Shown here in pieces: positions 12,978-48,095 of a stretch of 64,000 nucleotides of DNA (the first letter of the stretch is position 1; every line of letters begins with the position of its first letter). The stretch is from an uncultured Gammaproteobacteria bacterium. Lineage in GTDB: Bacteria; Patescibacteriota; Microgenomatia; UBA8517. Where the stretch lies: assembly GCA_965231135.1 (NCBI GenBank), contig OZ246419.1, forward strand, positions 81,028-145,027. The letters are read 5' to 3'. Below the pieces are notes generated by a model. The model searched no databases, was not told where the DNA came from, and saw only the letters and a program-made list of their open reading frames with translations. The position numbers and the translations under genes are program-made.

Positions 12978-14267
12978 TCAGAGATCAAACTCTGCTGGCA
13001 AGGTGTTAAGCATAAACTCTTCTGGTTTTTCTGCAAAAATTACTCTTTTACCTAATGATTGAGCGTATCCGATTTCTATTAAAGCTGATGCGCCGACATA
13101 ACCTTCTGGATCACAAATAATTAATGCATCACTTTTTTCAATAGAATCCAAATGATGTCTTTCCAATTCAAGAGGTGTCATCTTTTCTTCTCCTGAAAAT
13201 ACCACAAATTCTTCTCCAGGATTTTTGGGTTCTGTAAACCTCGGACTTAATACCTCTACATTATTTTCTACGAGTTCTTTCCTAATTTTTAGAATATAAT
13301 CTAAGTGTTTTCGAAAACTTCCACTTAAGGTAACATTTCTAAATTCTTGTCTTGCGGCACCGTTTATAAGATTTGAATTAGAAGGAATTATAGTTTCTAT
13401 TCCGTATTTTTCGCATATTGTTTGAGCTATTGCACTACAAGCTCTAGCTCCATGCATCCAGCTTGGATTGTCTGGCATAAGGTCTTCTAATTCTTTTAAT
13501 GTTATTTTTTCGAATACTTCTTCATTTTTTGAAGAGAAATCTTTAGTAGATATAAGAGACGGATGGTCTTCGTCGTTAAATAGATTATTTTTCTGCAAAT
13601 TATATTTTGCCAATTGCATGTAATTTAATTCTCCACCTGAATAGAGTCCAATTTTGACTTTATTGTTTAGTGTCGGTAATTTTTCAGAAACAAAAGCTTT
13701 TACTTTTTCAAGAGATGCAGCAGCTTTTTGTTCATTTATATTTTCAAATTCTGTTAATATTGTTCCTACTCCTAAGTCAACATTTTTAGTTTCTATTTCT
13801 TTATTATCTTTAATAACAACAAGTTCTGTTGAACCTCCACCGATATTTATAAGTAAAACTGGATCGTTGGTTTGATATTTACCAACTAATGCCACTTGGA
13901 GATAAAAACTTTCTAATTCTTGTGGAATTATATTGAAAAATAAACCAGTCGTGAGAAAGAACTCATCTACAAATTCCCTTTTTGTTTTTGGTTCAAGTTT
14001 TCTATATAAAGCAGTTGCAAATATTTTTATAGTAGTCTCTGGATATTTATTTTTTATCTCTTCGATAATTCCATATAATTCTTTTTTGTTATTATCAGAG
14101 ATACCCTTTATTGGATCGAAGTCCGTTTTAAATGGAATTGATTTTGTTAAAAATAAGTTAAGAGAGTCGCCTGCCTTTTCGTAAGCTTTAACTGTTGAAG
14201 AGCCTATATCAATGAATATGTATTTTTTCATTAAGTAGAATATAGTACTGCTTAAAACTATTGTCAA
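12978..14267 (-). CDS. Ppx/GppA-family phosphatase with extra C-terminal domain
   Basis: N-terminal IFIDIGSSTVKAYE actin-like ATPase motif of Ppx/GppA; C-terminal ~100 aa unassigned. Confidence 0.65.
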   Translation of the reverse strand: MTIVLSSTIFYLMKKYIFIDIGSSTVKAYEKAGDSLNLFLTKSIPFKTDFDPIKGISDNNKKELYGIIEEIKNKYPETTIKIFATALYRKLEPKTKREFVDEFFLTTGLFFNIIPQELESFYLQVALVGKYQTNDPVLLINIGGGSTELVVIKDNKEIETKNVDLGVGTILTEFENINEQKAAASLEKVKAFVSEKLPTLNNKVKIGLYSGGELNYMQLAKYNLQKNNLFNDEDHPSLISTKDFSSKNEEVFEKITLKELEDLMPDNPSWMHGARACSAIAQTICEKYGIETIIPSNSNLINGAARQEFRNVTLSGSFRKHLDYILKIRKELVENNVEVLSPRFTEPKNPGEEFVVFSGEEKMTPLELERHHLDSIEKSDALIICDPEGYVGASALIEIGYAQSLGKRVIFAEKPEEFMLNTLPAEFDL

Positions 14268-14314: not shown

Positions 14315-14596
14315 ATGCACGGTAACTTATTGGGCAAGAAAATTAAGACAGCTAGAGTTTTGGTGGGATTATCGCAAAAAGAATTAGCAGAAAAACTTAA
14401 TTTATCTGAGAAGACAATTAGTGCATATGAGAAGGGCAGAGCAACGCCGCCTTCCCCTACTTTACAAAGAATCGCTAACGCGACTAATCAATACCTTCAA
14501 TTCTTTTCTGAAAATGAAGGAAAGGATAAGACTGATGAAATTTTAGAAAAACTTGATATCATCATTCAAGAACTTAAAAGGATTAACAATGGATGA
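14315..14596 (+). CDS. XRE-family helix-turn-helix transcriptional regulator
   Basis: LSQKELAEKLNLSEKTISAYEKGRATP canonical HTH_3. Confidence 0.8.
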   Translation: MHGNLLGKKIKTARVLVGLSQKELAEKLNLSEKTISAYEKGRATPPSPTLQRIANATNQYLQFFSENEGKDKTDEILEKLDIIIQELKRINNG

Positions 14597-15149
14597 AGAT
14601 TTAATAAAAACCATTCTTACAACAGGGATTTTAAAAAGAATTGACAGGACAGGTTGGGTAAAAAAGGGAGTTAAAAATCCAGAATCTGTTTCTGATCACT
14701 CTTACCGTGTCGCTGTTATTGCAATGCTTGTTGCACCACTACTCGATTTAGATCAGGCCAAGTTGATAAAAATGGCTTTACTACACGACTTAGGAGAAGC
14801 AGTTATTGGAGATGTTATTTGGGAAAAAGGTAAAAAGATAATTGGTTCTCAAAGCGAAAAACACAAAGACGAAGGCGAAGCTGTCAAACAAATTTTTGAT
14901 AAAACAAATAACAAAGAATATGTTGAACTTTGGGAAGAATTTGAATTGCAAACTTCTAAAGAGGCGCAGGTTCTAAAACAAATAGATAAATTAGAGATGG
15001 CAATTCAAGCTTATGAATATGAGAGAGAAGGAAATCCTTCTGAAAAATTAAATGAGTTTTGGGAGAATGCTGAGAAATATTTACAAGATAAAGAACTGGG
15101 GCCATTATTTAATTTATTGGTAAAAATGAGGTCTTCAAATGAAAGTTAA
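14590..15149 (+). CDS. HD-domain phosphohydrolase (YfbR/HDDC2-like 5'-deoxynucleotidase family)
   Basis: HSYRVAVIAM (H..R) and LLHDLGEAVIGD (HD) motifs; start ATG overlaps the XRE stop in ATGA (translational coupling), so the track start 14553 is likely too early. Confidence 0.75.
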
Positions 15150-15211: not shown

Positions 15212-16105
15212 TTACAAAGATATATCTTCAATCATTATTTCCACATCTTTGATCGCCTGATCATTTACAACCAACTTCCACTCATCTGTGTCAATAGAAG
15301 GACTTATTCCTATACAACCTCTGATTCTTTTTATAATATTGTTCACTTCTACACGTCTGGTAGTTGTGTTTTGCGGTAACTTAGATATTGCCCGATTTAA
15401 TCTTTGAGTTACTTGCCCTATCGTCGCTTGAGAGTCAGGTACAAGATCCTGTAAATTAGCGGCGCTTTTATCGCTCCATCTGTTTAAGTATCCACTAAGT
15501 TTTTCGGTAACATTTACGGGTTCGTTGTCTCTTTGTGGTTTAGTTTGAATATATTCTTCTACTTTTTGACCGGCTTTATGTAGAGACCCCAACAGAATGT
15601 CGTGAGATTTAATATCAGCTATTACATCTTCATGCTGTTGTTGCACAAAGTCATCTTCTTCGCCTGTTTTTGGCTCTTCTAGATAGAGAACAACTTCGGT
15701 AACTTGATAGACATCGTACAACAAACCTTCTAGTTGTTCATAATCAAATAGTTCGAGTTCTTCTTCGTCTGTCAATTTGTCTGTGAGCTTATCACCTAGT
15801 TCATAAGTCATCTTGTTAGATTGTATTGCGTCTGTAAGTTCTTGAGATAAGCTTTGGGGGGATGACACGTCAAGCGAGTTTAATCTATGATTGAGTGCCA
15901 TTGGAGAGCCTAATGCTTTCCCATCATGGATGCTAAATTCTATACCATACTCTTTTGACAATCTATCTAAGACATCTCTAATTACTTGTCGTTCATTTTT
16001 TGGCTCTTCAATCCCTTCCATATCTACATCATGTAACGCATCTTCAAAAGCTGACAGATTTGGTTCATTGTCTTGTGGAATTGGAAGGTTCTTATCTTCT
16101 GACAT
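15212..16105 (-). CDS. Acidic hypothetical protein
   Basis: Highly D/E-rich 297-aa ORF, no motif. Confidence 0.4.
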   Translation of the reverse strand: MSEDKNLPIPQDNEPNLSAFEDALHDVDMEGIEEPKNERQVIRDVLDRLSKEYGIEFSIHDGKALGSPMALNHRLNSLDVSSPQSLSQELTDAIQSNKMTYELGDKLTDKLTDEEELELFDYEQLEGLLYDVYQVTEVVLYLEEPKTGEEDDFVQQQHEDVIADIKSHDILLGSLHKAGQKVEEYIQTKPQRDNEPVNVTEKLSGYLNRWSDKSAANLQDLVPDSQATIGQVTQRLNRAISKLPQNTTTRRVEVNNIIKRIRGCIGISPSIDTDEWKLVVNDQAIKDVEIMIEDISL

Positions 16106-16166: not shown

Positions 16167-16706
16167 TTAATTATTTTTAATTCGTTTGTTAATTAAGGGT
16201 GAAAAGTGATTTTTGTATTTTTCTTGAAGTTCTGATAATCGCCAGTCTTTGCCTGTAACTTTGTGTCTACAACTTTTTGAGCCACAATTACAATCCCATT
16301 TTGAGATATAATTTTCATCTGCTTCCCAAATTGCATAATCGGCAGTAAGTTCTTCATCTTTTGAAATATCACGCATAGCTACTAGGGCATAAGCACCTTG
16401 CATATATAAGTTAGGTTCACAAGAATGGTTTACGAAGTAGCCAGATCCTTCCCCTCTATCTTCAATACTAAAAAGATCATCGTCCCATTGCATAACCAAC
16501 TTACCACTCCTTTCGGCTTTATTAGCTTGTTTTGAGTTGACATATTCTCCACCCCAAACCACAACTAAATCTCCTTTTTTAATTGGTTTTACTGCATAAA
16601 GACCTTTCCCACCAATTTTAGATTGTCTTATTTCTGTGTCTGGGTTAATCCAATCTTCATCATTGAGGCTTTTTCTAATTTTCTTAATTATTTCTTCGGT
16701 ATTCAT
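16167..16706 (-). CDS. SET-domain protein methyltransferase with post-SET Cys cluster
   Basis: GKGLYA, NHSCEPN and ELTADY core SET motifs plus C-terminal CNCGSKSCRH post-SET zinc motif. Confidence 0.8.
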   Translation of the reverse strand: MNTEEIIKKIRKSLNDEDWINPDTEIRQSKIGGKGLYAVKPIKKGDLVVVWGGEYVNSKQANKAERSGKLVMQWDDDLFSIEDRGEGSGYFVNHSCEPNLYMQGAYALVAMRDISKDEELTADYAIWEADENYISKWDCNCGSKSCRHKVTGKDWRLSELQEKYKNHFSPLINKRIKNN

Positions 16707-16752: not shown

Positions 16753-17337
16753 TTAATATTTAAAAATTAGACCAATCTTGCCAAGAGATGTCTTTATTTT
16801 TAGATCCATTGGTTTAACAAATTTGTTAATTACAAAATATATCTCGATATTGAATGGATTCTTGTCAATTTTGCAGAATAGACATTTTTCTTTTGGATAC
16901 TTTTTTTCACTTTTCAAGTTTATTTTTCTGCCACCCAAATGGCGTTCTTCTGTATCTCCAAGAGGTAAGACATTATTCAAATAATACCTGGTGTGTTTAT
17001 CTGGGTCTAAATTAAGTTTTTCAGCGATTGTTTTTATCTCTTCATCCCATATGCTTGGAGATTTATCTAAGTCAAAACTCGTGAAGACTATCGGAGTTCT
17101 TCCAGTAAAAGTTTTTGGGTACTCTTCTTCTTCGTTGTGCATATTTAGCAAGAATTTTGTTTCTCTGTCTTCAATTATTTTTGCTTCATGGAAAGAATAG
17201 TGATGATGAGTACCGATGAACGATAGTCTTATATCTTTGCGTCCGTCAGTTAGGATTGATGTTTGTATTTTTATAAAAGGATATTCATGGTTTTGAAAAA
17301 TGGCTATTATGTATATCTCTGTTTGAAATTTGGACAT
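16753..17337 (-). CDS. Hypothetical protein (operon partner of OLD nuclease)
   Basis: 3-nt gap to upstream gene, 47-nt gap to SET gene; contains CLFC pair; no assignable domain. Confidence 0.45.
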   Translation of the reverse strand: MSKFQTEIYIIAIFQNHEYPFIKIQTSILTDGRKDIRLSFIGTHHHYSFHEAKIIEDRETKFLLNMHNEEEEYPKTFTGRTPIVFTSFDLDKSPSIWDEEIKTIAEKLNLDPDKHTRYYLNNVLPLGDTEERHLGGRKINLKSEKKYPKEKCLFCKIDKNPFNIEIYFVINKFVKPMDLKIKTSLGKIGLIFKY

Positions 17338-17339
17338 AT

Positions 17340-17918
17340 CTAAAAAGGTTTTCTTTTATGATAAAACCTGTGTTTTCCTTGTAATTGGTGTGTGTATTGT
17401 GTTGTGTAGTTATCTGTTAAGGAAACACCAGATATATTTTTAAGGGTACTTATTACTTGTGATATTAGGATTACTGATGCGGCGATAAGTATTATCCACC
17501 AAACAACAATCCATACTTTATATCTCAACCAAGTATTCTTCAGGAAATTTGTTTCTACTAGAATACGACCCGCCAAGACTCCGTTTCTATTTATTTTTAC
17601 CGACTGGTTAGAATTTGGGTCTTCATCACCAAAACCATACACTGGCAAGCTTTGCAGGATATGGGAACAACTATTTACTAACCGGTTCCTCTCGTCTTCG
17701 GAAATAAATTTTTCATCTCTACAATAATCCAAAGCAGATTTTACATGATTTGGACCTATATACGAGCCTAGATGTTGATGGTGTACACTAGCAGCCCAAA
17801 TTAGGACTGCTTTTACGCCATTCCACAAAGATTTCTCCTTTTTATGGCTTTCGTATTCCATCAACTGTTGTAGTATGTCCAACTTACGAAATGATGCAGG
17901 GGTAAAGGGAATATTCAT
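17340..17918 (-). CDS. Hypothetical protein with C-terminal transmembrane helix
   Basis: Soluble N-domain then WIVVWWIILIAASVILISQVI hydrophobic helix; 13 nt downstream of OLD gene. Confidence 0.45.
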   Translation of the reverse strand: MNIPFTPASFRKLDILQQLMEYESHKKEKSLWNGVKAVLIWAASVHHQHLGSYIGPNHVKSALDYCRDEKFISEDERNRLVNSCSHILQSLPVYGFGDEDPNSNQSVKINRNGVLAGRILVETNFLKNTWLRYKVWIVVWWIILIAASVILISQVISTLKNISGVSLTDNYTTQYTHQLQGKHRFYHKRKPF

Positions 17919-17930
17919 ACCTTATAAAAA

Positions 17931-19592
17931 TTATTCGTTAGCTATATCCACTGATTTGTTAATAATGTTTTTGATGGTAGTTGGAACTTCTTCTTTCGCG
18001 ATTGTTTCTGCTAAGTATTTAGCCGCAAAAGGCTTTGATTTTATTAAGAAATGCCTAACTTTTTCCTCCAAACTCTTATTTATAATTCTGGGGTGGTTTT
18101 TATAATTTGTGTAGCTGATGCCATAAGCTTGGTTCAGTAAAACATCTGTCTTTTGTAATCCAATGTCTTTTACAAGAACTGCTTCAAAATCTACATCCAT
18201 TGGAAACTTTGGCGCTTGTATCAAGTTTATTGTTTCATTTAACCCAGAACCGGGATCGTCGACGTCATAGACCACAACATGTGGAATTTTGAAACTTGTA
18301 AGATAGTCTGAATAGTTTTTTATATTTGGTTTACCGTTTACTTCAACCAAAACTACTCCCTTTTTAGATAAGTCTACGTTCAACTTATTAGCAAAGGTGG
18401 GAAGTGATAGATACTCTGTTGGTCCTTCCACTAAAATTACAGAGTTGGCAAAAAAAAGAAGGTTTCTTTGAGCATCAATATCGCGTTCAATTTTATTTTC
18501 CCCTGCGGGAGTTAACCAGTGAGATTCTTCGGGGAGCTGGACAACGTCGGTTTCGCCATTTTTTCTAAACACCCGTGCTATGTTTTTAGGTCTTGTTACG
18601 TTCACTAGAAATGGAGAATGAGAGGAAAAAACCACTTGGTTAGTTTTACTGCGATTTTGCATTGCTGTATTAAGTACGTATAATGCCAGCGGATGTAAAA
18701 ACAACTCTGGTTCTTCGAGACAAATTACTAGATTATTTTCCTGTTTAGCAACCAGTAATACCAGCGCTATTACTGCCAAACTTTTTATTCCGTCACCTTT
18801 TGTGTTTAGTTCACTTAAAAATCCATCATCGAGGTTTAGATGAACAGTTTTCATTATATCTCCTGGATTTACAGGCAATAATGATATATGAGTTGATGTG
18901 TAATCGTCTGTTAAAAATTCTAAGATTTGTTTTCTTATTTCTTCGTTAAGATTTACAAAGTCGCTACTTCCAGCAACTTTTATTGTTAGCTCTTCAAGGA
19001 TAGATTTTATATCTATATTCTTATTCGCATTTGATCTTAGTTTATTTAATAGTTTTCCCCAATCGTATTTTTGAGAATCAGAAAAGTATTTATCTGCATC
19101 TCTCTGTCCTGGTATAAGTATTAACTGCGGGAACAGTTCTCTTGCGTCGTTTTTAACAACTATCTCATTTCCGCCTACTGAATATCTTAATGGTTCAAGA
19201 TCGTCACCTAGATAATAAAATTTACCAGGTTCACCATAAGGCAACTCAAGGCAGACATTAAGCTTTGTTGAATAATTTCCTCTAACAGGCTCTGATCCCC
19301 TGACACGTAGATAGCCTCTTGCCTTTGATCTAAAAAATTTTAAGTCGTCTTCTGATAACTGATCGAGTGTTAATATAATCTTAACTGGTAATTTGGTATT
19401 GTTTCTGTGGTAATCGCCAATTTCTAGGTTTGTATAAGTAGGGTACGATTTGCCTAGTATTATAGATAAAGCTTTTATAATATTTGACTTACCAACGTTA
19501 TTGGGACCAACTAAGGCTAATAAATCACTGAAGCTGACTTCTGTTTTCTTTATACTTCTATAATTTTCTATAATTATTCTTTTAATCTTCAT
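17931..19592 (-). CDS. OLD-family ATP-dependent endonuclease (ABC ATPase + Toprim)
   Basis: N-terminal IKRIIIENYRSIK...LVGPNNVGKSNIIKAL (AAA_15/ABC Walker A), C-terminal Toprim ILVEGPTE ... VVYDVDD. Confidence 0.8.
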   Translation of the reverse strand: MKIKRIIIENYRSIKKTEVSFSDLLALVGPNNVGKSNIIKALSIILGKSYPTYTNLEIGDYHRNNTKLPVKIILTLDQLSEDDLKFFRSKARGYLRVRGSEPVRGNYSTKLNVCLELPYGEPGKFYYLGDDLEPLRYSVGGNEIVVKNDARELFPQLILIPGQRDADKYFSDSQKYDWGKLLNKLRSNANKNIDIKSILEELTIKVAGSSDFVNLNEEIRKQILEFLTDDYTSTHISLLPVNPGDIMKTVHLNLDDGFLSELNTKGDGIKSLAVIALVLLVAKQENNLVICLEEPELFLHPLALYVLNTAMQNRSKTNQVVFSSHSPFLVNVTRPKNIARVFRKNGETDVVQLPEESHWLTPAGENKIERDIDAQRNLLFFANSVILVEGPTEYLSLPTFANKLNVDLSKKGVVLVEVNGKPNIKNYSDYLTSFKIPHVVVYDVDDPGSGLNETINLIQAPKFPMDVDFEAVLVKDIGLQKTDVLLNQAYGISYTNYKNHPRIINKSLEEKVRHFLIKSKPFAAKYLAETIAKEEVPTTIKNIINKSVDIANE

Positions 19593-22504: not shown

Positions 22505-24004
22505 ATGAACATGAATAATAAGCTAAAATATATAAGATATTCGCGAAAATCATCTGAAGCGAAAGAAAAACAAGCTCTTTCGATTTCAGATCAGAACTTG
22601 GAATGCGAAAATTACGCGCTACGAGAGCATTTGAATGTTGTATTAAAGCTAGAAGAGAGTCATTCTGCTTATAAGCCAAGTAATCGACCAGAGTTCGATA
22701 AAATGGTTAAATTGATTGAAGCTGGTGAGATTGATGCAATTTTAACTTGGCATGCAAATAGATTGTGTCGTAACCCGAAAGAGGGTGGAATGTTACTTCA
22801 ACTGCTACAAGATGGGGTTTTGAAAGAGATAAGAACAACTGCTGGCGATATTTATACTTCTGAAAGCGATCAGCTTATATTGCAGATTCACTTTGGAATC
22901 GCTAATCAATATTCAAGGGATATAAGCAGAAATGTTAGAAGAAGTCTGTTGCACAAAAGTGAACGCGGTGAATTTCCGAGACAAGCAATTTTGGGTTATG
23001 AAGGAGAAGGTGTGCGTGGAAAAAGAAATATGGTTCCCCACTCTTTTGAAGCGCCTTTAATAAAAGAGGCTTATGAATTGGTTGCTTATAAAGCGTGTTC
23101 TCTTGGATATTTATCGGAATACTTTCATAAAAAAGGGCTTACCACTAAACGAGGGAAGAAAATCAGCAAAAGTCATTGGTATGCGATATTAACAAATCCT
23201 GCTTATTACGGTTATTTTTATTACAGGGAAGAGATTTACAAAGGTATTTATACCCCGATCGTATCTAAAACGCTTTATGACGCAGTACAAACAGCCTTGA
23301 GCGGTCGGTCGAGACCGAAGACTAAGATTTGGAATGCTACTTATAACGGAATTTTTAAGTGTAAAAATTGTGGTTGTTTTATTACTACGACTTTCAAGAC
23401 AAAAAATTACAAAAGGACTCAAAGAACAGTCGATTATGTTTATATGCACTGTACACACAGAAAAGGAAGTTGTACTCAAAAACCTATTACCCTCAAGAGC
23501 TTTGAAAAACAGCTTTTAGATCGAATCTCAAAAATATCCATAGACGAAGAGGTGTGGTCTCTTGGAATTAAATTACTCAAAGCCAAACATAGTCACGAAA
23601 TCGAACAAAATACCAGCCAAAGATTGCAATATCAAACAAAATATAATGCGTACCAGGACAGACTTAACCGGTTAATAAGCATGAGATCAGAAGAAGAAAT
23701 TACAAAACAAGAATTTATAACACAAAAAGAGCTTTTGTTAGGAGAACAAGCACGAGTCAAAAGCTTACTAAATGACACTGAAAGTTCAGAACATACTTGG
23801 TTAGAACTTGCTGAAGATTTCTTAAATACTGCTTTTTACGCACGAGACTTGATAACAAGTGGAAAACCAGACGAAAAACGGAATTTGATTATGACTGTGG
23901 GTGAGAACTTCTTTTTGGAAGATGAAAGGCTTGATTTTAGCTTCAAAAAACCTTATGACATACTACTCATCCCTGACTGCCGTACTAACATGCTCCCCCG
24001 GTAG
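22505..24004 (+). CDS. Large serine recombinase (site-specific integrase)
   Basis: N-terminal resolvase domain YIRYSRKSSE...LSISDQ (catalytic Ser in R.S context), ~500 aa with Cys-rich recombinase/zinc-ribbon region (CKNCGC...CTHRKGSC); 3' end overlaps tRNA-Asn. Confidence 0.85.
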   Translation: MNMNNKLKYIRYSRKSSEAKEKQALSISDQNLECENYALREHLNVVLKLEESHSAYKPSNRPEFDKMVKLIEAGEIDAILTWHANRLCRNPKEGGMLLQLLQDGVLKEIRTTAGDIYTSESDQLILQIHFGIANQYSRDISRNVRRSLLHKSERGEFPRQAILGYEGEGVRGKRNMVPHSFEAPLIKEAYELVAYKACSLGYLSEYFHKKGLTTKRGKKISKSHWYAILTNPAYYGYFYYREEIYKGIYTPIVSKTLYDAVQTALSGRSRPKTKIWNATYNGIFKCKNCGCFITTTFKTKNYKRTQRTVDYVYMHCTHRKGSCTQKPITLKSFEKQLLDRISKISIDEEVWSLGIKLLKAKHSHEIEQNTSQRLQYQTKYNAYQDRLNRLISMRSEEEITKQEFITQKELLLGEQARVKSLLNDTESSEHTWLELAEDFLNTAFYARDLITSGKPDEKRNLIMTVGENFFLEDERLDFSFKKPYDILLIPDCRTNMLPR

Positions 24005-24064
24005 GATTCGAACCTACGACCTTGTTCTTAACAGGAACCCGCTCTACCGCTGAGCTACAGGGGA
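23993..24064 (-). tRNA. tRNA-Asn (GUU)
   Basis: 72-nt cloverleaf folded by hand: acceptor TCCCCTG/CGGGGGA, D-arm GCTC AGCGGTA GAGC, anticodon loop CTGTTAA, T-loop TTCGAAT; no encoded CCA. Confidence 0.85.
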
Positions 24065-27197: not shown

Positions 27198-27285
27198 TGG
27201 CGGAGGCGGTGAGATTCGAACTCACGAGACTCTTACGAGTCCAAGTTTTCCAAACTTGTGCCATAGGCCACTAGGCGACGCCTCC
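27198..27285 (-). tRNA. tRNA-Ser (GGA), class II with long variable arm, CCA encoded
   Basis: Reverse complement GGAGGCGTCGCCTAGTGG...anticodon loop TTGGAAA...long variable arm...GTGAGTTCGAATCTCACCGCCTCCGCCA. Confidence 0.85.
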
Positions 27286-27289
27286 AGAA

Positions 27290-27730
27290 TTATTTTTTCT
27301 TAGCCTTTTTCTTTTTGTCTAATTCTTTAAGGAGGTCGCGAGCCGACTTTAGCATTGCCAAATCTTTTTTATTTTTAATTTTTTTTGCAGCCTTTGTGTA
27401 GTCAAGCCATTCGAAATCTAAAAATGCCAAGACTTCTTTTGCTTCTTTGCAAATCATTAAATAGTAGAGAGTTCTTTGAGGAATAGTATTACCACCAACA
27501 AGAGCTGCTCCATTAACCCGGCCGACTTCTTCTTGGACTTTAACATTCATTGCGGCTTGCTCACCCATCATACGAATAACTGCACGAACTGAAGATTCAC
27601 CACGCCTGGCATTTGTTTTTGGAATTTCCCAATCTCCGTCTTCTTTTTGTTTCACTACAAACCAAACTGGCTTATCTTTAACTTTTTTGTAGACAACTGC
27701 ACCACCAACAAGAATTAATTTTTGTTTCAT
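27290..27730 (-). CDS. Hypothetical protein, weak Nudix-like features
   Basis: GESSVRAVIRMMGEQAA loosely resembles a Nudix box; lysine-rich C-terminal tail. Confidence 0.4.
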   Translation of the reverse strand: MKQKLILVGGAVVYKKVKDKPVWFVVKQKEDGDWEIPKTNARRGESSVRAVIRMMGEQAAMNVKVQEEVGRVNGAALVGGNTIPQRTLYYLMICKEAKEVLAFLDFEWLDYTKAAKKIKNKKDLAMLKSARDLLKELDKKKKAKKK

Positions 27731-27784
27731 TGTGCTTGAATTATATCACGAATTCACCCATTCGGCTTCGCTCAGGGCTGTAGG

Positions 27785-27869
27785 CGGCGGGTGCAGGATT
27801 TGAACCTGCGTAAGGATTGCTCCTTTCGGTTTTCGAAACCGATGCAATTGGCCGCTATGCGAACCCGCC
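27785..27869 (-). tRNA. tRNA-Ser (CGA), class II
   Basis: Acceptor GGCGGGT/ACCCGCC, anticodon stem TCGGT/ACCGA with loop TTCGAAA, long variable arm, T-loop TTCAAAT. Confidence 0.8.
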
Positions 27870-27882
27870 AATAAATAACTTG

Positions 27883-27954
27883 TGTACTCGCTGAGAATCG
27901 AACTCAGATCAAAGGATCCGCAATCCCTTATTCTGTCCATTGAACTACGAGTAC
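27883..27954 (-). tRNA. tRNA-Arg (GCG), isotype tentative
   Basis: 72-nt cloverleaf: acceptor GTACTCG/CGAGTAC, anticodon stem AGGGA/TCCTT, loop TTGCGGA (G37 consistent with a CGN reader), T-loop TTCGATT. Confidence 0.7.
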
Positions 27955-28034
27955 TCTTCGACTACGCTCAGAGCTATAGCTTACTCGAATTATATCAAAT
28001 TGAAGCTTTTTTATCGTGAAGCGACAAGCTTTGC

Positions 28035-28547
28035 TTATTTTAAACCGGGCATTTTATTACTAAACCAGTTGGTTGCACGATCTAAACCTGAAGCTGGGAC
28101 TTCTTCATGAACAAGATATTCGCTTAAAGCTTTTTGAATTTGATCTTTTAATTCCGGTTTTGTTACTAATTCCAAACGCCCTGGCAAAACTCTTGTTTCG
28201 ATTATTAATAGTTCGTTATCAAGACGCTTTGCAAACCAAAATCTATTCATAATATTCCAATCAGTTAGGCGCCCCGCAATTTTGATTCCTTTATTTGTAA
28301 TTTTATATTCAATATTTTCAGGCTCAATTGTTGACATAACATACACTAAAAAAACAATAGAAATAATTAAAATTACTGGAAGAAAACCGTCAATTAAAAA
28401 TGCGACTAAACCTGTAACTGCAGCGATTGCAATAATATTTATATAAAATTCACGATTTCGCCTTTTGAAGGGACGAGAAGGTGCAGACCATACAATTAAA
28501 TCTTTTTCCGGAACGTTTTGTTGTACTGTTGTTACTACTTCGGGCAT
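28035..28547 (-). CDS. Membrane protein, unknown function
   Basis: Two central TM helices; no motif. Confidence 0.45.
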   Translation of the reverse strand: MPEVVTTVQQNVPEKDLIVWSAPSRPFKRRNREFYINIIAIAAVTGLVAFLIDGFLPVILIISIVFLVYVMSTIEPENIEYKITNKGIKIAGRLTDWNIMNRFWFAKRLDNELLIIETRVLPGRLELVTKPELKDQIQKALSEYLVHEEVPASGLDRATNWFSNKMPGLK

Positions 28548-28592
28548 CAGGAATATTATACGTCAATTTGATATAATGCGGTAGGTTTGAAA

Positions 28593-28679
28593 GGAGGCGT
28601 CGCCTAGTGGCCTATGGCAGAAGTTTGCTAAACTTCGACCCCTAATCGGGTCTCGTGAGTTCGAATCTCACCGCCTCCG
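28593..28679 (+). tRNA. tRNA-Ser (GCU), class II
   Basis: GGAGGCGTCGCCTAGTGGCCTATGGCA...anticodon loop TTGCTAA...variable arm...GTGAGTTCGAATCTCACCGCCTCCG; acceptor, D- and T-arm near-identical to the inverted Ser(GGA) gene. Confidence 0.85.
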
Positions 28680-28733
28680 CCCAAGGTGTTCGGTCGCATA
28701 AGCGAAGCTTGTGGCGACCCACCTCGCAAGCTC

Positions 28734-28821
28734 GGTGAGGTCGCATAGTGGCCTAGTGCGTTGGTCTTGAAAACCAATATAGGGAATTTCCCTATCGAGA
28801 GTTCGAATCTCTCCCTCACCG
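28734..28821 (+). tRNA. tRNA-Ser (UGA), class II
   Basis: Acceptor GGTGAGG/CCTCACC, anticodon stem TTGGT/ACCAA with loop CTTGAAA, long variable arm TATAGGGAATTTCCCTATC, T-loop TTCGAAT. Confidence 0.8.
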
Positions 28822-28828
28822 CTTAGTT

Positions 28829-30514: not shown

Positions 30515-30928
30515 GGGGACGATCGGTTTCGACGTTTTAAGTACTTTGAAAATTAGCAAGCAGACATTGAATCTAAGTCTTAACCTAGATTCAAAAAACA
30601 AAAGCTAAATCTAACGATCAAGCTTCTGAAGTAAATCCTTTAATGGCTTTACTTGGTGTTGGTTCTAACCAATCAGCACTTGCTTTTGCTTAATACTAAG
30701 CAAAGCGCGGCATTCTTTTAATTGATCTCGACCATTTAAAAAGAGTGTAAGAAAGAACGAGATAGATATTAATCTTCGATTTAGGATTAAATATCGAAAA
30801 ATTAAATCTTACTTTAAATTTATTTGGTTATTTTAATATTTAGAGGACATTTTTAAACAACATAAGCTTGTAGAACTAATTTCAAAAAACTTTTACGGAC
30901 GAGGGTTCAATTCCCTCCGTCTCCACCA
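30515..30928 (+). ncRNA. ssrA: Transfer-messenger RNA (tmRNA)
   Basis: 5' GGGGACGATCGGTTTCGACG and 3' GGACGAGGGTTCAATTCCCTCCGTCTCCACCA (tRNA-Ala-like T-arm and acceptor with encoded CCA); internal tag ORF ends ...SNQSALAFA-TAA at 30691-30693; adjacent to smpB. Confidence 0.85.
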
Positions 30929-46892: not shown

Positions 46893-47885
46893 TTAACATA
46901 CACCTTCAAAGACCTGGCCACAGGAACATTGATACCCTGGCTCAATCTTTTTTTCAATAACTTTGTGACAATATGGGCATTCTTTGACGTATTTGGCTTT
47001 TTTCTCGCCTAAATTTGCTTGTCTAAAATTGCCCATGCCGTCCATGACATAATTTCCAAAGCGAAACTCAAGCTCCTGATTTAGCGAACCTGGGCAAGCA
47101 TAAGTGTTTATTTTCCAGCCTTTTTCCTGCATTAACCTTTCTGCTGCCGCCCCGGAGCGGATATAATCTCTTTCGTGAACTGCAAATTCCAATTCAATAC
47201 TCATTTGCTTTGCAATTGGCAAGGCATCCCATACTGCCCTACTTTTAATTTTTCTTGGGGCGCCTTTTTTTATTTCTTCTAACGCTTTCGAATCAAGATC
47301 TAAAAAATCTAAATTGGAGGTTAAAAAGGCAGCTTGGCGCAAATCATCCGGATTAAAAATCAAATCTTTACCTTCTTTAATTAATAATTTATCAGCAAGT
47401 AATAATAAATCCTGGGGAGACAATTTCGAAGGGATTCCGTAACACTCCAGCACTTTCATACCCAAAAGATGTCTTACTTTAGCAATATTAATTCTTGATT
47501 CTTTATAGGGAGAATTACCTCCTGAAGGACTAAAAGAAATAATAAATTCATTTTCTTTTGCTTGCTTAGCTTTTTGATAATAAAAATCTATTGCGCCTGC
47601 AGTCTCGGCAGATGATAATTCATTGTTGTTACCAAAATTGACAGCTACTTCTTCGCGAGAGGTTAGATTAATAATTTTACCTTCTTGAGTGATAGCAATA
47701 TACCAAGGATTAATTCTTTCTTCTAAGTTTCTGTCTCCTGCTTCAATGACAAGGCCGGCAAGATCGTGGGCAATAACCCAGCTGCGTTTTTTTAAAGAAT
47801 ATTTTTTATAGATTGCAGTATCAAATACTTTTTTTGTTTCTGTGAAGTCAAATTGAGAATTTATTTTTTCTTGACGATCTACCAT
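46893..47885 (-). CDS. Hypothetical protein with C-terminal CxxC...CxC zinc ribbon
   Basis: C-terminal ECPYCHKVIEKKIEPGYQCSCGQVFEGVC. Confidence 0.45.
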   Translation of the reverse strand: MVDRQEKINSQFDFTETKKVFDTAIYKKYSLKKRSWVIAHDLAGLVIEAGDRNLEERINPWYIAITQEGKIINLTSREEVAVNFGNNNELSSAETAGAIDFYYQKAKQAKENEFIISFSPSGGNSPYKESRINIAKVRHLLGMKVLECYGIPSKLSPQDLLLLADKLLIKEGKDLIFNPDDLRQAAFLTSNLDFLDLDSKALEEIKKGAPRKIKSRAVWDALPIAKQMSIELEFAVHERDYIRSGAAAERLMQEKGWKINTYACPGSLNQELEFRFGNYVMDGMGNFRQANLGEKKAKYVKECPYCHKVIEKKIEPGYQCSCGQVFEGVC

Positions 47886-48095
47886 ATCTGCTCGGAATTA
47901 AACCCTTGTTAGTTTTCCGACTATACGGTAGCGGCACTGCGAGGGAATTACACCCTACTTCCTTAAACACAAAGATAATTTTCATATTAAACTTTCATTC
48001 TTTAAAAACAAGGAGTGTTTTGTGCGTGAAAATGCTATAATGGTTGCTTAAACTGCTTCACAGAGTAAAGTTAAAGTAAGGCATAGTTTTTTAAA

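Follow-up and report, generated by a model that had tools for sequence, protein, structure and literature searches.

A small stand-alone SET-domain protein in a variable island of a Patescibacteria genome, and its prokaryotic family

Known SET enzymes and the 179-residue protein

In SET enzymes, SAM and the acceptor are bound on opposite faces, and a tyrosine aligns and desolvates the nucleophile. The KMT2 (MLL/Set1) enzymes are large, multidomain proteins that are activated by WDR5, RbBP5, and Ash2L and have histone H3 as their substrate; SET proteins of free-living prokaryotes have been known for approximately 20 years. Among the small ones, BurB of Burkholderia thailandensis (PDB 9l4t/9l4v), a stand-alone bacterial SET enzyme of 172 residues, is a methionine S-methyltransferase with proven activity on free methionine (PMC12542666). 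The archaeal Go1-SET (AAM32541) is likewise a small, stand-alone prokaryotic SET protein, with an endogenous DNA-binding target, and is used here as a functional model, compared by description. The secreted bacterial effectors LegAS4/RomA (Legionella), NUE (Chlamydia), BtSET (Burkholderia), and BaSET (Bacillus anthracis) have the SET catalytic core in common with the protein described below, and PBCV-1 vSET and the SET proteins of giant viruses and phages have in common with it their minimal size and the SET fold.

This protein of 179 residues is encoded in a stretch of 64,000 nucleotides (the window, meaning the whole stretch of DNA that was analysed), which comes from a Patescibacteria MAG, in agreement with the episymbiont-like host proposed in a first-pass annotation. 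The gene and its motifs are given below; invariance and conservation refer to an alignment of 30 homologues (A1).

16167..16706 (stop codon included), minus strand: SET-domain methyltransferase gene, 179 residues, open reading frame from ATG to stop
16602..16610, minus strand: GxG SAM-binding motif, G33-K34-G35; G35 invariant, G33 at least 90% conserved; aligns with MLL1 "GRG"
16410..16430, minus strand: NHSCEPN motif, residues 93-99, SAM pocket and pseudoknot; N93, H94, C96, and N99 invariant; codons read in the DNA
16335..16352, minus strand: ELTADY motif, residues 119-124, with Tyr124 as the catalytic Tyr; E119, T121, D123, and Y124 invariant, A122 at least 90% conserved; aligns with MLL1 ELT-Y3942-DY
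16269..16292, minus strand: post-SET Cys cluster C139-x-C141-x4-C146; all three Cys invariant; aligns with MLL1 CNCGAKKC and BurB CHCGAPNC
16179..16259, minus strand: conserved C-terminal tail, residues 150-176, consensus ITGKDWRL..LQ.RYKGHFSPLINKRI; family-specific, with two predicted helices

Pfam SET matches residues 33-124 (E=4.5e-15, 56.4 bits, gathering cut-off 22.4), covering profile positions 1-104 of 105 (PF00856 / COG2940), and SET is the sole domain found in the Pfam scan. An identical NCBI entry, encoded on an 810-kb contig, is named [quoted passage not shown]. The AlphaFold2 model (pLDDT 92) has the beta-rich pseudoknot SET fold. Residues Y90-F-V-N-H-S-C-E-P-N99 conform to (R/Y)F(I/V)NHxCxPN, and E119-L-T-A-D-Y124 conforms to ELx(F/Y)DY with Ala at the F/Y position. 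The Zn(Cys)4 cysteines C96, C139, C141, and C146 are all invariant and align with those of the MLL1 post-SET, and Cys96 would be the fourth ligand of the zinc site. The first-pass annotation had described a complete SET core with a post-SET Cys cluster, and this is borne out, with all motif residues present and the key ones invariant in the 30 homologues. Neither the catalytic Tyr nor the NH(S/C)xxPN residues have been lost, since Y124, N93, H94, C96, and N99 are all present and invariant. All of the features that define the SET superfamily and the post-SET zinc cluster and that can be tested computationally are present in the protein, and it is, judged by its motifs, apparently catalytically competent.

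The closest solved relatives belong to KMT2/Trithorax-Set1 (human MLL1/KMT2A, PDB 2w5z and 6pwv), with approximately 30% identity to MLL1. The protein had been called eukaryote-like, and this is accurate in so far as the nearest solved structures are those of eukaryotic KMT2 enzymes; otherwise, only prokaryotic homologues were retrieved, in a protein search and from a genome collection made up of prokaryotes. In comparison to MLL1, the 179-residue protein is stand-alone and has no WRAD-binding or N-SET regions, the insert after NHSCEPN, ahead of the last strand, is smaller by 7 residues, it has Ala in place of Tyr3942, and it continues into a conserved tail of approximately 30 residues where MLL1 ends after the post-SET. 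It thus resembles the KMT2 class but is not a member of it, because it is single-domain, prokaryotic, and only approximately 30% identical. BurB aligns significantly over residues 94-153 only. Its C-terminal half aligns without the 7-residue insert that MLL1 needs, but its N-terminal half, with the Gln37-Ala44 gating loop, has no recognisable counterpart in the 179-residue protein. Additionally, BurB lacks the remainder of the family tail, and the gene described here lacks a bur-type cluster, having ORFans and an OLD-family gene as neighbours. The protein is not demonstrably a member of the BurB group.

The tail includes the invariant residues G152, D154, W155, Y164, H167, F168, and I176 in the alignment of 30 homologues. 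It is modelled by AlphaFold2 at pLDDT 93-97, with predicted helices at residues 158-163 and 170-178, and none of the solved structures that were compared aligns past residue ~153-157. Ala122 occupies the position aligned with MLL1 Tyr3942, the Phe/Tyr switch, and is kept in at least 90% of family members. Ala appears to be tolerated at this position, because yeast Set1 with Y1052A, V, or F at the switch is still active, with its product shifted toward H3K4me3 (PMC3585878). By analogy, a multiply methylating enzyme would be the likeliest reading if the acceptor is lysine.

A large family of solitary SET proteins

Such proteins had been taken in the first-pass annotation to be uncommon in bacteria. 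This does not hold, because the family is large and surveys report SET genes to be common in free-living prokaryotes (PMC9018016, PMC3980110); in one published survey, SET proteins occur in 41 of 105 bacterial species (PMC9018016). A word-indexed protein search retrieved 313 proteins at E<=1e-5, and among the 120 of these that were listed (the query aside) identity is 55-78% and length is mostly 165-180 residues. When 1.84 billion cluster representatives were scanned exhaustively with HMMER, 89 clusters (50% identity) were matched at E<=1e-30 and 1,537 clusters at E<=1e-10, with 6,541 SET proteins of any kind at E<=1e-3. Similarly, at least 576 species genomes have a confirmed relative in a scan of one genome per species, in a collection made up of prokaryotes only. 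No papers on SET proteins in Patescibacteria were found in the literature.

The bacterial hosts include many classes of Patescibacteria, Chloroflexota (including the cultured Longilinea arvoryzae KOME-1), Myxococcus (among them Myxococcus sp. RHSTA-1-4), Acidobacteriota, Zixibacteria, KSB1, and Sumerlaeota, and the archaeal hosts include Heimdallarchaeota, Bathyarchaeota, Thermoplasmatota, Woesearchaeota, Nanoarchaeota, and Methanosarcinales (L040). The family is a large set of stand-alone SET proteins of approximately 170 residues, with a patchy distribution across Patescibacteria, Chloroflexota, other bacteria, and many archaeal phyla, and has evidently spread by horizontal transfer. Because the family is found in hundreds of bacterial and archaeal species, the gene in the window is an ordinary accessory gene, correctly annotated in NCBI, and not a rare eukaryote-like effector. 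Plasmid matches are all at or below 36% identity and are located on megaplasmids, the 36% member being on a Streptomyces megaplasmid. One further match, 32% identical over residues 33-177, lies on a megaplasmid of Paraburkholderia phenoliruptrix (H3, NC_018696.1, 385545..385994) under a gene annotated as "HAD-IA family hydrolase" alone, which suggests either a HAD-SET fusion or an overlooked SET gene.

The surroundings of the gene are not conserved. When approximately 1,085 flanking ORFs from 85 fetched loci were clustered by BLAST, no neighbour family extended beyond a few loci, and among the 130 genes adjoining the SET gene no Pfam family was shared by more than two. A conserved operon partner was thus rejected, since nothing is recurrent in either comparison. 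The commonest neighbour within 6 kb is NUDIX, present at nine loci, four of them from one lineage; it was considered as a partner and rejected, as by a rough estimate its frequency is not above chance. Biosynthetic clusters of the bur or DMSP type were not present around the SET gene at any of 80 loci. The closest homologue (P0003) is surrounded by APH kinase, GNAT, NUDIX, and RibD_C genes, and another homologue (P0011) by radical-SAM and methyltransferase genes. Because no neighbour is recurrent and the closest homologues have differing surroundings, the SET gene is a solitary, self-contained unit that has moved among very different genomes.

Some members of the family are fused to other domains. 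The long members (n=83) include fusions to NUDIX, SDR, GNAT, SnoaL, cupin, AdoMet decarboxylase, and ATP-grasp domains, each type being seen only once or twice, and one lineage has a DinB/ClbS-like fusion domain with weak, sub-threshold matches to DUF1706 and DinB_2. A domain of approximately 125 residues with the motif W.LLDGLHRL is repeatedly fused to the SET family at either end: it is C-terminal in P0022 and P0047 and N-terminal in P0023, P0096, and P0102, and further fusions are present at L007 (4412..5416), L028 (5608..6483), and L068 (5911..6915). This domain has no Pfam match. Its motif resembles ParB/Srx, with a weak match to SbnI (E=0.13) as the sole supporting one in the PDB, and in the AlphaFold2 model of the fusion it has low confidence (pLDDT 40-65). 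Many representatives, 340-400 residues in length, have two SET units in tandem (P0132, P0133, P0135, P0140, and others). Additionally, the giant proteins P0185 (1415 residues), P0246 (1449 residues), and P0174 (2151 residues) have six to seven matched stretches, the best-scoring of which corresponds to the half from NHSC to the tail, residues 87-172.

Probable chemistry and substrate

The 179-residue protein is probably a small, soluble, cytoplasmic protein-lysine methyltransferase with an endogenous target. It would adopt the canonical SET pseudoknot fold, with a Zn(Cys)4 post-SET lid formed by Cys96, Cys139, Cys141, and Cys146. SAM would be bound on one face, between the GxG and NH motifs and the post-SET lid, and the acceptor amine would enter through a narrow channel from the other face, where it would be deprotonated, desolvated, and aligned beside the invariant Tyr124 for direct methyl transfer. 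The likeliest substrate is a lysine epsilon-amino group in some abundant, broadly conserved endogenous protein, for example a nucleoid-associated or ribosomal one. Given that the family moves between bacterial and archaeal genomes with no partner gene, such a target protein would have to be near-universal and abundant.

A protein lysine is favoured for two reasons. Firstly, over the whole domain the best alignment is to KMT2-class enzymes (profile E=1.6e-18), which are protein-lysine methyltransferases, and it takes in the N-terminal half (SET-N and SET-I), by which the substrate site is shaped. Secondly, in archaea, the one SET protein to have been characterised has an endogenous substrate, the chromatin protein MC1-alpha (PMC3980110). 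The fold, the motifs, the distribution of the family, and the lack of conserved neighbours are shown directly, whereas enzymatic activity, lysine as acceptor, the endogenous nature of the target, and how far methylation proceeds are inferred. Against this reading, the sequence gives no means of telling a lysine in a protein apart from other nucleophiles, housekeeping modifications are not usually distributed so patchily, and the strongly conserved C-terminal tail is unaccounted for. Furthermore, the rare fusion partners are mostly small-molecule enzymes, and the C-terminal half resembles that of BurB, with compact spacing and CxCGxxxCRxxITG common to both.

The last two points also bear on the main rival explanation, which is possible but not likely, namely that the protein works on small molecules in the manner of BurB, its acceptor being some metabolite or xenobiotic, such as an amine or thioether, in place of a protein. 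BurB is of similar size, and its alignment to residues 94-153 (E=1.1e-7) includes a short NHSC-to-ELTxDY spacing that is common to both proteins. The switch residue is non-aromatic in both (Met in BurB, Ala in the 179-residue protein), and the "CR..ITG" continuation of the post-SET is present in both and absent from MLL1. Nearly all domains fused to family members belong to small-molecule enzymes, and one lineage has the DinB/ClbS-like domain with its weak matches; the genes around the closest homologue (APH kinases, GNAT, NUDIX, and RibD_C) are also counted on this side, and the solitary, patchy spread across both domains fits a substrate that is not encoded by the genome. However, BurB matches the C-terminal half only, whereas the SET-N/SET-I half aligns with MLL1 and not with BurB; any one fusion type occurs just once or twice among the 83 long proteins; and none of the 80 loci has a biosynthetic cluster.

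The same explanation could be extended to the whole family of approximately 170 residues, as defined by the ITGKDW...GHFSPLINKRI tail and the Ala switch, which would then consist of BurB-like enzymes for free metabolites or xenobiotics and not of protein-lysine methyltransferases. In that form it is doubtful. The family, partnerless as it spreads through CPR bacteria, Chloroflexota, and DPANN, Asgard, and Bathyarchaeota archaea, would have a pocket enlarged by Ala122 for an acceptor other than lysine. If true, a large part of what prokaryotes do with the SET fold would be small-molecule chemistry, and this would have been overlooked.

The finding has little consequence for this locus, where the gene is correctly annotated by NCBI and of a kind long known. 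The wider value lies in a large and very conserved SET subfamily that is present in both prokaryotic domains and has no member with a known substrate. Its tail, Ala switch, and BurB-like C-terminal half hint at chemistry unlike that of the textbook histone enzymes, and knowing the substrate of the subfamily would reveal whether proteins or metabolites are the main targets of small SET enzymes in prokaryotes.

The island around the gene

The SET gene is located within a variable island of roughly 15.2-24.0 kb, the other features of which are as follows.

15212..16105, minus strand: ORFan of 297 residues, downstream of the SET gene; no Pfam, PADLOC, or PHROG match; GC3 raised
16753..17337, minus strand: ORFan of 194 residues; no Pfam, PADLOC, or PHROG match
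17340..17918, minus strand: ORFan of 192 residues; no Pfam, PADLOC, or PHROG match
17931..19592, minus strand: OLD-family ATPase/TOPRIM nuclease (Old/GajA-like); Pfam AAA_15 and OLD-like_TOPRIM; PADLOC Old E=4e-54, GajA E=4e-51
22505..24004, plus strand: large serine recombinase at the island edge; Pfam Resolvase, Recombinase, and Zn_ribbon_recom; PHROG integrase E=2e-62
23992..24064, minus strand: tRNA-Asn(GTT) (ARAGORN, Rfam), the likely right-hand boundary of the island, followed by the core genes rpoD and dnaG (Pfam)

On the minus strand, the OLD nuclease gene and two tightly packed ORFans (192 and 194 residues) are upstream of the SET gene and the 297-residue ORFan is downstream, with successive gaps of 12, 2, 46, and 61 bp. 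No GajB helicase partner of the OLD gene is present in the window, and the two homologues that the 194-residue ORFan has are located in different contexts, neither of them shown beside an OLD gene. Together, the OLD gene and the two ORFans may constitute a three-gene OLD variant not yet described; alternatively, the OLD gene may be of class 1 and its neighbours simply unrelated to it. To the right of the OLD gene are a SHOCT protein and three ORFans, and then the large serine recombinase. The last 13 nt of the recombinase ORF overlap the 3' end of the tRNA-Asn gene on the opposite strand, which suggests integration at or into this gene, and an integrase at a boundary beside a tRNA is characteristic of an integrated element. 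No convincing direct repeats that could represent att sites were found at the island; for serine recombinases, a few bases suffice for att.

The nearest relative found comes from a metagenome scan with the neighbouring Ppx-GppA gene. The contig Ga0265297_10001150 (1..9895; L086) has a Ppx-GppA that is 78% identical and, beside Ppx-MPG, a different cargo: a serine recombinase, EcoRII endonuclease and Dcm methylase, SpoVG, a SMODS nucleotidyltransferase, DUF6602, and a fragment of a type I specificity (S) subunit. Only Ppx-MPG is syntenic, with no rpoD or tRNA within reach on that contig. Because this relative holds entirely different cargo at the same position, the locus is a variable, mobile-element-prone hot spot for integration and defence genes.

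Base composition sets the SET gene apart from the rest of the island. Mean GC3 is 0.296 in the nine other genes between 15212 and 24004, versus 0.221 +/- 0.033 in 54 genes outside (Mann-Whitney p=3.7e-6), and the GC3 of the SET gene, 0.233, is genome-like, the exception within the island; for a single gene of 179 codons this offset is marginal, amounting to only about two sampling standard deviations. Even so, it speaks against a common origin of the SET gene and its neighbours. Whole-gene GC has no anomaly across the island. The HD_3 gene just left of the island (14553..15149) is also genome-like, with a GC3 of 0.241. Since its GC3 is genome-typical, unlike that of the nine island genes, membership of the SET gene in the element is uncertain, and its status as cargo of one integrated element is unproven. 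The mobile element named in the first-pass annotation is thus supported as a strain-variable segment beside a large serine recombinase and tRNA-Asn, but whether it includes the SET gene is uncertain. A more general link to mobile elements or phages is not supported, as no relatives occur in IMG/VR or in 50,697 phage records and the neighbours differ in every genome. The position in the island is incidental to the function of the SET protein, and nothing links that function to the OLD nuclease or the recombinase. A scan for promoters and terminators was uninformative, because the counts match the shuffled expectation.

The first-pass annotation had also proposed that the protein could act on host or phage proteins. 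On this explanation it would be an effector, encoded on an integrated element, that leaves the episymbiont and methylates proteins of the bacterial host or of an infecting phage. This is distinctly unlikely. The gene does lie between the serine recombinase/tRNA-Asn and core genes, near the OLD nuclease and ORFans, at a spot where the relative with the 78%-identical Ppx has other cargo (serine recombinase, EcoRII restriction-modification, SMODS), nine island genes have raised GC3, and secreted SET effectors are known from Legionella, Chlamydia, and Burkholderia (PMC3980110). However, the protein has no signal peptide, a hydrophilic N-terminus, and no ankyrin or other extra domain, and it is not a member of the secreted-effector family, because it scores just 15.1 bits against the AnkI/LegAS4 effector model (NCBIfam NF043024), the cut-off of which is 550. 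Additionally, the family is also present in free-living Chloroflexota, Myxococcus, and archaea; it has no relatives in IMG/VR viral contigs or in the INPHARED phage records; its plasmid relatives are of low identity and on megaplasmids only; the SET gene's GC3 fits the genome and not the island; and att repeats were not found. A phage or viral origin was considered separately and rejected, as PHROGs, IMG/VR, INPHARED, and BFVD gave no relatives or only distant ones.

A role as an anti-phage component with the adjacent OLD nuclease, either as a methylation-based sensor or as immunity for the nuclease, is highly improbable and close to refuted because there is no co-occurrence with OLD: the five genes are co-stranded with short gaps and the PADLOC models Old and GajA both recognise the OLD protein, but the SET protein has no PADLOC match, recurrent neighbours of the OLD or ATPase kind are absent from 80 other loci, the 194-residue neighbour is found elsewhere without OLD or SET, and the GC3 of the SET gene is unlike that of its neighbours. 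No literature linking SET to anti-phage defence was found.

Several other features of the window were observed. The Ppx/GppA-family phosphatase (12978..14267, minus strand) has a C-terminal region that weakly matches nucleoside 2-deoxyribosyltransferase (E=0.007), and several metagenome contigs encode the same 429-residue architecture (60-78% identity), with a methylpurine-DNA glycosylase following in every case. An AdoCbl-II (cobalamin) riboswitch aptamer (47903..47975, minus strand; 40.6 bits, gathering score 36.5) is located just upstream of a gene of 330 residues (46893..47885), which is unusual for a reduced Patescibacteria genome. Four tRNA-Ser genes (GGA, CGA, GCT, and TGA) are clustered with tRNA-Arg(GCG) at 27198..28822, and near this cluster is a tmRNA of 414 nt (30515..30928), the predicted tag of which is long, at 29 residues (AKSNDQASEVNPLMALLGVGSNQSALAFA).
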